Origin: a virus
Lineage: Duplodnaviria; Heunggongvirae; Uroviricota; Caudoviricetes
Length of the DNA: 6,532 nt
Reading direction: 5' to 3' (one strand)
IMG/VR virus record: IMGVR_UViG_2711768009_000014
Shown here: piece by piece, positions 2,169 to 6,532 of the stretch
Layout of the letters: the number at the start of each line of letters is the position of its first letter
Position numbering within the stretch: the stretch's first letter is position 1
Notes under the pieces: model-generated
What the model saw: the letters and a program-made list of their open reading frames with translations, nothing else
Databases searched by the model: none
Told to the model about the DNA's origin: nothing
Translations under genes and position numbers: made by a program

Positions 2169-2288
2169 GTCTTTTCCTTTTCCGGTTAACGTGACACACC
2201 AATAACTCTTGTCGAAAAAGCCAGCAAGCTGAAAGACAGGTATTCACCGCCACCAGCGCGTTTACTGTACTGACGCGATTTCAGTCAT

Positions 2289-2310
2289 AAAAAACCCGCT
2301 CGGCGGCGGG
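2289..2310 (-). terminator. tR'-like rho-independent terminator of the late promoter leader
   Basis: Minus strand CCCGC-cgccga-GCGGG followed by TTTTTTATG; lies about 45-65 nt downstream of the predicted pR' start. Confidence 0.6.
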
Positions 2311-2351
2311 TTGTAGAAACTCTTCTAACGTCAGGCATAAAACGCCCATCG

Positions 2352-2387
2352 TTATAACGAATTTACCACAGATTCCGGAAAAATCAA
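2352..2387 (-). promoter_or_regulatory. Late promoter pR'-like (Q-dependent), with lambda-type -10 TAAATT and downstream AACGATGGG sigma70 pause element
   Basis: Minus strand, immediately after the Q stop codon: TTGATT (2387-2382) - 16 nt - TAAATT (2365-2360) - cgttata - ACGATGGG. Lambda pR' as I recall it has TTGACT, TAAATT and AACGATGGG at matching spacing. Confidence 0.6.
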
Positions 2388-2392
2388 CCTTG

Positions 2393-3214
2393 TTACCTAG
2401 TTACCTTTTTTAACTGCCGCTCAGCCCATGCTTCTTCAATATCAAACCGGGTCACCAGCGCATCATAAAATTTCTTAACTGTTTTTTCCCATGACGCGCG
2501 TGTTATCTGGTTTGTCACCTCGCATATAGCATTAAATGCCTCCGTTGATGGTAGTCTTTCATAGCCACGACCACCACAACGCTGGCAGTCTCTGATAACA
2601 GGCATACCACGTTTTACCGACTCTTCACGATGAATGGCGACACCACGCCCACGGCAATCCTTACAGGCGGTGGAAACCTCACCCTTTCCGCCACACTCCG
2701 GACAGGCAACTTTTACCACCTCCCTGACTTTTTTCCATTCTTCCCAGTAAGACGGATACACACCTTTCGTACACTTTGCCCATACCGGCGGCTTACCATC
2801 CGGATACTGGATCTTGTTTGTAAAAACCTCGCTTTCAATAAATTTTTTTCCGTGACAGCAGGGGCACTGTTTTTTGCTCGCCGCGCTACGGGCATAATCT
2901 TCAAACGCATACGAAGCCATAATACGCATCACTGCCGGTTTTATTTCTGCCGGGAGTTTTCTTAACGCCGCCACGCGATCACACCGACTGAGTGCATATT
3001 CTGTCAGCAATTCTGTTGCCCGCTCTCTGTCATTCATACTAATGCCCATTTTCCCAAGGAACGCAGAAACCCCCATCTCAGCCCGATTCTGTGTCATGCC
3101 CTGCGCGGCCATCACATCAGTGATACTCAGCGCATCTTTCGACGTTGAGGCCGATGCATCAGTCAGGCCGGGGGATTTTGGGGAGTAGTATTTCGGTAAA
3201 TCTTCCAGTTTCAT
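2393..3214 (-). CDS. Q: Late-gene antitermination protein Q (lambda Q family) with an expanded cysteine-rich zinc-finger region
   Basis: 273 aa; recognisable blocks shared with lambda Q as recalled: N-terminal M-[KR]-LE...K-[FY]-x-SPKSP, TDVMAAxGM, AxYAFxDYxRSAA, C-terminal WxxTVKxxYDALV. The central region carries CPCCHGKK, CPECGGKG, CKDCRGRG and CQRCGGRG (CxxCxGxG repeats). Start ATG overlaps the rusA stop (ATGA); followed directly by the pR'-like promoter. Confidence 0.8.
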   Translation of the reverse strand: MKLEDLPKYYSPKSPGLTDASASTSKDALSITDVMAAQGMTQNRAEMGVSAFLGKMGISMNDRERATELLTEYALSRCDRVAALRKLPAEIKPAVMRIMASYAFEDYARSAASKKQCPCCHGKKFIESEVFTNKIQYPDGKPPVWAKCTKGVYPSYWEEWKKVREVVKVACPECGGKGEVSTACKDCRGRGVAIHREESVKRGMPVIRDCQRCGGRGYERLPSTEAFNAICEVTNQITRASWEKTVKKFYDALVTRFDIEEAWAERQLKKVTR

Positions 3215-3591: not shown

Positions 3592-4650
3592 TTATGCTTT
3601 CCACTTCAGAACACCCGAATTTCTCGCGTGCATTAAAAAACGAATCAGCAACAACAGCTGACTGCCGTGTTTCTCTTCAAAATCTTTTACTCCGGCATGT
3701 AGTTCGTTACGGCATTTACGGCATAACGGAATAACAAACAAATCATCAGCCTTTGTTCCCATCCCTCCCAGTCCATGACCAATGATGTGATGCGGATCAT
3801 CTGCCTGATTGCCACACGTCATGCATTTCTGCGTTTTTACCCAGCGCGTGTATACAGGCATCTCTTCCCGTTGTGATTTCTGGCGCTGGAGATACTGAGC
3901 CGGTGACTCCGGATCAACGGCAATGCTGACCACCGTCTTTTCCTGTGGTGGGTTCTGTTGCTGGTGGACGTGAGGCAGTAACGCAATATTTTTTGTGCGC
4001 TGCTTCAGTATGCTGGTGGCTGTCTGCTCTCCCGGTATGATGTCGCTTTCACTGTACACAGAGCGAATTTTTTCCGCACGCAACCCCAGCGAACGACGTA
4101 ATACCGCTTCCGGTAGCGCGTCCGCCACCTGATTGCGGACCGCCCACCAGGATAATTCAGCCAGAGATAATTCACGCTCCTGCGTACCGCTTATTGCGTG
4201 ACCGATGACGTCAATCATCCATGCTGACAGGTTTTGATGAGCAAGTTGCTCGAGTGATTCGGATGTCTGGTCACGCAGCTGGTTGTCGCAGTGCCAGCAC
4301 AACACCATTGCGCCGGTACCATAACGGTGAATGACGGTTTCGCTGTGATGATAATCGCCGTGTGGCCACTGGCAGGATTTAATATGGCGCAACAGCCAGT
4401 CAGACAATGCACCAGCACCACCAGCAGCACGAATCACCCGTGCGTTACTGAAAAACGGCAGCAATGTTTTGTCTTCCACCAGCGGCTGGCGAGCGGCAGG
4501 AACGACCCCGGACGGCAGATTACGCATGCTTTTTGGTTCCGGCTCCACCAGTATTCTGCCGTTATGGAATGCTGACATTGATTCACGGCCTGGCTTAACG
4601 ATAACCAGACCGAGTTCCGGTACCAGAACAGGTCGAAGTAATACCCGCAC
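3592..4650 (-). CDS. Prophage DUF968-like protein (YdfU-like) with C-terminal HNH-like Cys/His motif
   Basis: 352-aa ORF with GTG start preceded by a strong SD (tctGGAGGtaatGTG); C-terminal CMTCGNQADDPHHIIGHG...CRKCRNELH resembles an HNH/zinc-ribbon nuclease motif. Size and position (immediately upstream of rusA and Q) match the ydfU-type gene of Qin-like prophages; family assignment is from memory. Alternative ATG start at 4578. Confidence 0.6.
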   Translation of the reverse strand: MRVLLRPVLVPELGLVIVKPGRESMSAFHNGRILVEPEPKSMRNLPSGVVPAARQPLVEDKTLLPFFSNARVIRAAGGAGALSDWLLRHIKSCQWPHGDYHHSETVIHRYGTGAMVLCWHCDNQLRDQTSESLEQLAHQNLSAWMIDVIGHAISGTQERELSLAELSWWAVRNQVADALPEAVLRRSLGLRAEKIRSVYSESDIIPGEQTATSILKQRTKNIALLPHVHQQQNPPQEKTVVSIAVDPESPAQYLQRQKSQREEMPVYTRWVKTQKCMTCGNQADDPHHIIGHGLGGMGTKADDLFVIPLCRKCRNELHAGVKDFEEKHGSQLLLLIRFLMHARNSGVLKWKA

Positions 4651-5227: not shown

Positions 5228-5383
5228 TTACTCCTCAGGTTCGTAAGCTGTGAAGACAGCGACCTCCGTCTGGCCGGTTCGAATTCGTACCTCGCAGAGG
5301 TCTTTCCTCGTTACCAGTGCCGTCACTATGACGGTTAAACAGATGACGATCAGGGCGATTAACATCGCCTTTTGCTGCTTCAT
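5228..5383 (-). CDS. hok: Hok/Gef-family membrane toxin (type I toxin), HokD/RelF-like, 51 aa
   Basis: MKQQKAMLIALIVICLTVIVTALVTRKDLCEVRIRTGQTEVAVFTAYEPEE: single transmembrane helix plus the conserved C-terminal ...RKxLCEVRIR..G.xEVAAF.AYE block of Hok proteins; SD GGAG 9 nt upstream. The leader (GCTTGAGGCT ... TAGCCTCTTAC ... GCAAGGAGAAG.AGGC.ATGAA) parallels the plasmid R1 hok mRNA leader as recalled. Confidence 0.9.
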   Translation of the reverse strand: MKQQKAMLIALIVICLTVIVTALVTRKDLCEVRIRTGQTEVAVFTAYEPEE

Positions 5384-5431
5384 AGCCTGCTTCTCCTTGC
5401 CTTTCGGCACGTAAGAGGCTAACCTAGATTT

Positions 5432-5505
5432 GCCGTTCATAGATTGAGCCTCAGATTAATGTTAAGCGTCTTGCCGGACGCGTAATGTTAACTGGGGCTT
5501 TTCTC
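5432..5505 (+). ncRNA. Putative Sok-like antisense RNA (antitoxin of the hok locus)
   Basis: On the plus strand inside the hok leader: TTGCCT (5397-5402) - 17 nt - TAACCT (5420-5425), with a transcript complementary to the mok-like SD/start region and ending near GGGGCTTTTCTCT (about 5495-5505), which resembles the 3' end of R1 Sok (GGGGCUAUCUUCUUU). Ends are approximate; no clean terminator hairpin identified. Confidence 0.4.
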
Positions 5506-6392: not shown

Positions 6393-6532
6393 TGAGGTGT
6401 ACTGGCAATAGCGGACACTACCATTTGTTCTTTTTTTAAGCAGCCATCTGATGATATTTTTCCCTGAAGGCTGCCGGGGAGATATTCCCCAGACGAGAGT
6501 GACGACGCTGACGATTGTAGAAAATCTCAATG
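6393..6532 (-). mobile_element. Second copy of the same IS3-family element end, inverted orientation; the rest of the element lies outside the window
   Basis: Exact reverse complement of 1-140. Confidence 0.8.
6436..6531 (-). CDS. IS3-family transposase OrfB C-terminal fragment (5'-partial, runs off window end)
   Basis: Mirror image of 2..97; same translation ...IEIFYNRQRRHSRLGNISPAAFREKYHQMAA*. Confidence 0.75.
   Translation of the reverse strand: MEIFYNRQRRHSRLGNISPAAFREKYHQMAA

Follow-up and report, generated by a model that had tools for sequence, protein, structure and literature searches.

Q proteins are textbook antiterminators, and in prophages of the enterohaemorrhagic Escherichia coli (EHEC) type they gate the late operon, including the toxin genes in Shiga toxin (Stx) phages. 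Phage phi80 carries a longer form of the protein and is reportedly the bearer of this form that was studied experimentally, in work by Guo and Roberts in 2004 (cited in PMC9388147). The one member with solved structures is lambda Q, in which a helical body (residues 61-113 plus 153-207) carries an arm (residues 114-152) that is a zinc ribbon. The arm swings by ~75 degrees about the body/arm junction to get to positions 11-13 of the Q-binding element; sigma region 4 is contacted by the tip of the arm, and the beta' zinc-binding domain by residues 110-112, 117 and 122-126. The N-terminus refolds into a nozzle on the RNA-exit channel made of a torus (residues 1-44) and a helix (45-60) (PMC9388147). 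The locus considered here is a gene at positions 2393-3214 of a 6,532-nucleotide stretch of DNA from a tailed virus (Caudoviricetes), IMG/VR record IMGVR_UViG_2711768009_000014, which is referred to as the window. The joint best explanation of the observations is that this gene encodes a late-gene antiterminator Q of a lambdoid prophage, a member of PF03589 in the majority form of that family with two zinc ribbons, and we would give this reading, mechanism included, a probability of roughly 0.8.

The open reading frame (ORF) is composed of 273 codons plus a stop. The protein matched PF03589 ("Antitermination protein Q") in Pfam with a score of 179.2 bits (cut-off 26.7; E 1.6e-53), and a phmmer search of the PDB sequences aligned its residues 1-113 to lambda Q 1-113 and its residues 182-273 to lambda Q 116-207 (7ubm_Q, E 3.5e-41), so that an earlier note on this DNA, made from the letters alone, was right to describe both ends as like those of lambda Q. 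The profiles of the Q21 (PF06530) and Q82 (PF06323) families gave no match in the Pfam scan at E values up to 0.01, NCBIfam returned only weak DnaJ and anti-TRAP zinc-knuckle matches, and the relatives in RefSeq carry the label "antitermination protein". Best conserved with lambda is the N-terminus, which shares 23 of its first 44 residues with lambda Q 1-44, the identity in structural alignments being ~31%. The segment 114-181, 68 residues in length, is a gap in the alignment to lambda Q, and the protein is 66 residues longer overall, its 273-residue length and the four cysteine motifs quoted in the note being as described. The gene and its parts are as follows.

2393..3214, minus strand: Q antiterminator gene (ORF list, PF03589, PDB phmmer, RefSeq relatives)
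3035..3214, minus strand: residues 1-60, N-terminal nozzle segment of the lambda type (lambda identity, AlphaFold2, Foldseek)
2876..3034, minus strand: residues 61-113, helical body, first half (lambda Q 61-113 by alignment, AlphaFold2)
2672..2875, minus strand: residues 114-181, predicted extra zinc ribbon with no lambda Q counterpart (alignment gap, AlphaFold2, conservation, pN/pS)
2843-2866, minus strand: knuckle 1, CPCCHGKK, in the extra ribbon
2681-2704, minus strand: knuckle 2, CPECGGKG, in the extra ribbon
2561..2671, minus strand: residues 182-218, lambda-type arm, a zinc ribbon (aligns to lambda Q 116-152)
2642-2665, minus strand: CKDCRGRG, in the lambda-type arm
2564-2587, minus strand: CQRCGGRG, in the lambda-type arm
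2396..2560, minus strand: residues 219-273, helical body, second half, with the helix-turn-helix (lambda Q 153-207 by alignment, AlphaFold2)

Four CxxCxGxG repeats are present, CPCCHGKK starting at residue 117 (and ending in KK instead of xG), CPECGGKG at 171, CKDCRGRG at 184 and CQRCGGRG at 210. The earlier note had regarded all four as an inserted array and gave lambda Q a single Cys4 site. The single site is correct, and it is here that the array divides: the lambda finger, CRDCHGTG...CGRCKGVG, aligns with the third and fourth motifs, C184, C187, C210 and C213 matching lambda C118, C121, C144 and C147. As motifs 3 and 4 are the ordinary lambda finger, that finger itself consists of two CxxCxGxG knuckles, and on the alignment only motifs 1 and 2 (C117 and C171), which do lie in the extra segment, are additional to lambda Q. 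When 120 homologues with 35-97% identity to the window protein are aligned, none of the eight cysteines (117, 120, 171, 174, 184, 187, 210 and 213) varies, nor do F131 and K134. Selection was analysed on 62 unique alleles 93-100% identical to it; a scan of viral contigs with the alignment returned only close relatives in this range and served for selection, whereas diversity was judged from individual annotated phage records. Among the 62 alleles the ratio of nonsynonymous to synonymous polymorphism (pN/pS) is 0.085 for the extra segment vs 0.158 for the rest of the gene. With eight invariant cysteines and an extra segment under purifying selection, the motif array is not a product of chance. 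The spacing of the third knuckle takes two forms in the family, CxxCxGxG in lambda and the window and CxCxGxG in phi80, ES18, Fels-1 and others.

The AlphaFold2 model, for which the same 120-homologue alignment served as input, has a mean predicted local distance difference test score (pLDDT) of 85.9 and a predicted template modelling score (pTM) of 0.70. Residues 1-60 are predicted as two helices, 3-10 and 31-44, joined by a loop of low confidence, the first half of the body as helices 60-80, 82-85 and 92-108 (pLDDT ~95) and the second as helices 223-233 and 239-272 (pLDDT above 90), and lambda's strand-helix-strand arm is retained between motifs 3 and 4. The extra segment is modelled as two strands, 125-136 and 159-170, joined by a tip (137-158) with a short helix (pLDDT 78-87), motif 1 standing just ahead of the first strand and motif 2 just past the second; a sub-model shows the same beta-hairpin elements. 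The best match in Foldseek was 7ubn_Q, the NusA-engaged full-length lambda Q (E 1.1e-14, target TM 0.77). The protein combines the family profile and a helix-turn-helix body superposable on the solved lambda Q with a Cys4 arm, a nozzle-homologous N-terminus and, downstream, a late promoter, pause and terminator. A hairpin of the predicted kind ends where it began, so that one zinc would be expected to be bound jointly by motifs 1 and 2 and a second one by motifs 3 and 4, as the latter do in the lambda crystal structures. The protein should then carry two tandem ribbons, in the first of which C117/C120 and C171/C174 would hold together the base of a long beta-hairpin. In natural variants motifs 1 and 2 are lost jointly while 3 and 4 remain, which supports tandem pairing.

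The four motifs could instead be a true DnaJ-type domain, derived from a chaperone, V-shaped, with nested zinc (motif 1 with 4, motif 2 with 3) and with DnaJ-like properties. CxxCxGxG is the DnaJ-type repeat, as the note has it, and PF00684 (DnaJ_CXXCXGXG) scores 30.1 bits, just below its cut-off of 32.7. However, the cysteine-rich domain of DnaJ and its single-zinc relatives anti-TRAP and BSD2 differ from the window module in this sub-threshold score, of which the best stretch (171-218) covers motifs 2-4 only, and in topology, nested rather than the tandem predicted here. DnaJA2 appeared in the Foldseek search only at E 0.86, the Pfam scan gave PF03589 and PF00684 and neither a J domain nor a DnaJ C-terminal domain, the client-binding domain is likewise absent from the window protein, and the setting is that of a transcription factor. 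A chaperone-derived domain is therefore highly improbable. The knuckles are of the DnaJ cysteine-rich type, yet as a whole the module does not reproduce the two-zinc domain of DnaJ convincingly; as for the DnaJ-like two-zinc module that the note proposed to look for, a second zinc ribbon is predicted, in an arrangement that is probably tandem.

The note took the module to be a lineage-specific insertion into a lambda-like Q, a new and enlarged domain that could alter engagement with the paused complex. Viewed from lambda Q this has its attractions, the difference being a clean addition of 66-68 residues at the hinge, beside the residues which contact the beta' zinc-binding domain, and the candidate Q-binding element of the window differing from that of lambda. 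The distribution of the long form tells against it. Copies with at least 80% nucleotide identity are found in 2495 of 5426 complete E. coli genomes (46%), and in a phage collection 131 of the 249 matching records cover the protein in one piece, phi80, ES18, Fels-1, mEp460 and Stx2c phages included, while the lambda/P22/HK97 type matches it in two pieces. When ten long-form phage proteins were translated, four motifs were present in all ten, motif 3 sometimes as CxCxGxG. In a library of representatives at 50% identity the family is small (234 hits), and ~35 of ~40 full-length clusters, including some only 30-40% identical to the window protein, possess motifs 1 and 2, which are separated by 30-79 residues. 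The lambda-like short form is confined to four full-length clusters (lambda, P0180, P0162 and P0260). A neighbour-joining tree of the shared N- and C-terminal blocks, midpoint-rooted without an outgroup, scatters these short forms, which are monophyletic in 0 of 100 bootstraps, the short P0162 being sister to the long P0131 in 100 of 100. The four-motif proteins have homologous flanks around the knuckles (C.CC.G.GF.E.EVFT.K ... V.V.C..C.GKG); with such flanks in the long forms and the short forms scattered, repeated loss is far more parsimonious than repeated gain. A lineage-specific insertion is accordingly very unlikely, and its polarity was probably backwards, as the four-motif form dominates the diversity of the family and two-motif forms arise at several places in the tree. 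On these sequence comparisons, the extra ribbon is probably ancestral and was lost by lambda, P22 and HK97, lambda Q being a reduced form; such losses in nature suggest that the ribbon may be dispensable.

Nor is the architecture unusual. The long form is what is usual in the family, annotation of the gene exists already, and the combination PF27659 + PF03589 + PF00684 is recorded in databases for hundreds of clusters, one source naming a homologue "chaperone protein DnaJ" and the record of phage FSL SP-016 tagging its own Q with COG0484 (DnaJ-class); this is not a new kind of system. The Q of phi80 (gp17, 269 residues) has the same four-motif, two-ribbon architecture with a segment of 70 residues at the same place, and differs in being ~40% identical to the window protein, in the CxCxGxG spacing of motif 3 and in another variant of the hairpin tip (46% identical in its near-identical relative P0271). 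ES18 gp73 and Fels-1 Q are likewise of the four-motif form, and so is the lambda-family Q of mEp460 (250 residues), of the type of QuuQ from the Qin prophage of E. coli K-12, which shows 38% identity and whose hairpin is shorter, motifs 1 and 2 being 35 residues apart. All four of these, phi80, ES18, Fels-1 and mEp460, are working phages. The name quuQ is also given to a close copy of the window gene (93.9% nucleotide identity) in the record of a Stx2a-converting phage, LC567834.

Downstream of the gene the layout of a lambda-type late promoter, pR', was recognised when the sequence was set beside those of lambda and phi80; a generic sigma70 promoter scan called no promoter in 1900-2500.

2360..2387, minus strand: late promoter pR' (read from the sequence, layout match to lambda and phages)
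2382-2387, minus strand: -35 element of pR', TTGATT
2374-2380, minus strand: candidate Q-binding element, TTCCGGA, in the 16-nucleotide spacer (position and likeness to the phi80 annotation)
2360-2365, minus strand: -10 element of pR', TAAATT, with TGG ahead of it
2345..2353, minus strand: sigma-dependent pause element, AACGAT then GGG, 6 nucleotides past the -10
2283..2312, minus strand: intrinsic terminator tR', stem-loop 2293-2312 then TTTTTAT

The promoter starts 5 nucleotides past the Q stop codon and runs TTGATT, 16 nucleotides, TAAATT, CGTTAT (6 nucleotides), AACGATGGG and then the terminator, as compared with TTGACT, 17 nucleotides, TAAATT, TGACTC, AACGAT and GGG in lambda; the pause element AACGATGGG is identical to that of lambda pR' in sequence and spacing. 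In the terminator scan tR' is a strong terminator whose stem has 7 pairs, 5 of them G-C, and is followed by a T run; the terminator which the earlier note had placed at 2289-2310 is thus there, its minus-strand position being 2293-2312. A promoter region laid out in this way also follows the long-form Q genes of phi80, mEp460, SP-016, YeP1 and RCIP0098. The phi80 record annotates TCGCGGA, directly after the -35, as the Q-binding site, and TTCCGGA, its equivalent in the window, is by position and by similarity to that annotation a candidate Q-binding element.

As to the surroundings, in complete genomes the gene order is hok, DUF968, RusA, Q, a small ORF, a DNA methyltransferase, tRNA-Ile/Arg/Arg, an esterase, holin and lysozyme, and these genes are present in the window as far as the tRNAs. 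In N-terminal nozzle segment, helical helix-turn-helix body, two-knuckle Cys4 zinc-ribbon arm, gene position and pR' layout with a nearby terminator, the locus resembles that of lambda Q (PDB 4MO1, 7UBJ-7UBN), from which it differs in the presence of residues 114-181, and with them two zinc ribbons rather than one, in the sigma region 4-contacting tip of the arm (1 of 5 residues identical) and in the Q-binding-element candidate. Given the 23 of 44 identities at the N-terminus, the pR' layout and the gene order, the protein is presumed, by homology, to work as lambda Q does. The helix-turn-helix body and the lambda-type arm would bind the Q-binding element in the pR' spacer, Q would engage RNA polymerase that sigma70 keeps at the pause element, the first 44-60 residues, which are conserved, would refold into a nozzle on the RNA-exit channel, and polymerase so modified would read through the terminator at 2293-2312 and later ones into the methyltransferase, tRNA and lysis genes. 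The second ribbon would most likely be an accessory second arm, by which the loading complex gains a contact with one of its host components, either RNA polymerase or NusA.

As to where this second arm would be, the extra segment, by alignment, is placed exactly at the body/arm hinge, amid the residues with which lambda Q touches the beta' zinc-binding domain. On what the second ribbon does, the literature searched on Q with DnaJ-like zinc, on phi80 Q and on QuuQ offered no paper, Guo and Roberts (2004) and Vorobiev (2014) lying outside that search. A tip cassette, YPDGKPPxWAKxTKGVxPSYWEEWK (residues 137-158, window nucleotides 2741-2806), is 68-86% identical to that of the window protein in phi80-clade Qs which are 35-44% identical to it elsewhere; the bearers of the window-type cassette are P0272, P0276, P0284 and P0290, and P0272 is 89% identical to phi80 Q overall yet has the window-type tip. 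Such a pattern suggests cassette exchange within the Q gene, and a conserved cassette in divergent Qs is more readily reconciled with a host partner that is itself conserved than with a DNA site peculiar to each phage. From this pattern and from the site near the beta' zinc-binding domain and the NusA contact residues, contact of the hairpin with a host protein is the most likely role. That the second hairpin makes a contact of its own in the loading complex is nevertheless put forward tentatively, at clearly less than even odds, the likely partners by position being the beta' zinc-binding domain, the flap or NusA.

The ribbon might instead be an additional DNA-binding arm, reaching positions 5-10 of the Q-binding element or the DNA upstream of the -35 and conferring higher affinity or a different specificity. 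The homologous zinc ribbon of lambda binds DNA via residues near the zinc ligands, and positions 5-10 of the element are left untouched by lambda Q (PMC9388147); the extra segment, which lies between two DNA-contacting parts of Q, has a net charge of +5 (13 K/R vs 8 D/E) and eight aromatic residues. However, the spacer with the Q-binding element is of the same length (16-17 nucleotides) for long and short forms, which weighs mildly against such an arm, no extra conserved DNA element was seen among the pR' regions compared, and with the Q stop codon 5 nucleotides from the -35 in the window the upstream DNA is coding. One tip cassette is, moreover, common to Qs with very different bodies and helix-turn-helix regions, and a DNA-binding arm thus appears unlikely.

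Of similarly low probability is a purely structural ribbon, one which would stiffen or pre-set the hinge, remove the need for the 75-degree swing and have no partner of its own. Its position exactly at the hinge would suit this, as would the family-wide majority fractions, which are 0.64-0.70 for the knuckles and strands at the hairpin base and 0.70 for the lambda-type arm, and the tip varies and can shrink to a minimal ribbon of 30 residues, as in P0127. Within the window lineage, however, constraint is described as strongest in the tip (pN/pS 0.022 among the 62 alleles, the second strand plus motif 2 having 0.015), and a tip conserved or exchanged as a cassette across clades suggests that the tip itself is used.

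The interpretation as a two-ribbon, lambda-type Q with a hairpin that contacts a host protein should be considered with some caution, as several points weigh against it. The tip is the most variable segment family-wide (mean majority fraction 0.47) and occurs in several cassette types, which argues against one universal partner. The pairing of motif 1 with 2 and 3 with 4 follows from the secondary-structure prediction, from the crystal structure of lambda Q and from the natural deletion variants rather than from Cys-Cys distances. On a distance tree rooted as described, the ancestral state of two ribbons is parsimonious within PF03589 and not proven, and two antiterminators dispense with zinc altogether: AlpA of Pseudomonas (7XYB), which has no detectable sequence similarity to the window protein, has no zinc module, nor does 82Q have one of any kind (PMC9371919). 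In addition, the prophage fragment is bracketed by IS600 ends, and this copy of the gene may sit in a defective prophage.

What is known of this family at the atomic level was all learned from lambda Q, which, as the comparisons made here indicate, is without the zinc-binding hairpin that most of its relatives keep under purifying selection, and caution is warranted when the lambda mechanism is transferred to prophage Qs. If the hairpin does make its own contact, typical members of the family would load unlike lambda Q, for instance with a pre-set arm, another requirement for NusA or another pause-escape behaviour, the exchangeable tip cassettes would tune that contact, and lambda Q would be an atypical, reduced model for its own family.

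As for the remainder of the window, its ends, 1-139 and 6394-6532, form a perfect 139-bp inverted repeat which matches an end of IS600, that is, the C-terminus of an IS3 family transposase plus the terminal repeat. Two inverted copies of IS600 may flank a prophage fragment of 6.2 kb; alternatively, a repeat may have been collapsed at the contig ends. Three tRNA genes lie at 585-834 on the minus strand, downstream of Q and the methylase, with the anticodon CAT, Arg-TCG and Arg-TCT, the first being called Met by ARAGORN and tRNA-Ile in the RefSeq relatives; we take the trio to resemble the ileZ-argN-argO set of EHEC-type lambdoid prophages, which stands ahead of stx in Stx phages. In the window the trio is followed by the IS600 end. 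A run of 31 Ns at 1830-1860 falls inside the 5' part of the DNA methyltransferase gene, of which the ORF finder reports 875-1813 only, the intact gene in a related complete genome (L094 5069-6127) encoding 352 residues.

Upstream, in the early-right region, a Hok/Gef toxin ORF is found at 5228-5440 on the minus strand (PF01848, E 3e-23; hokD in relatives). Two genes upstream of Q, at 3592-4650 on the minus strand, is a DUF968 protein with an HNH-like motif, which record LR597641 (L004 68-1117) labels "Phage antitermination protein Q"; this looks like a mis-annotation, the true Q being the 273-residue gene. Two ORFs that overlap Q, 2630-2965 on the plus strand and 2713-2910 on the minus strand, were rejected as frame artefacts inside a conserved coding gene. 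Finally, an ORF of 65 residues at 1971-2168 on the minus strand, a hypothetical protein in relatives, has a weak winged-helix (TrmB) match (E 0.0026) and lies between tR' (2293-2312) and a second terminator-like hairpin at 1967-1984.
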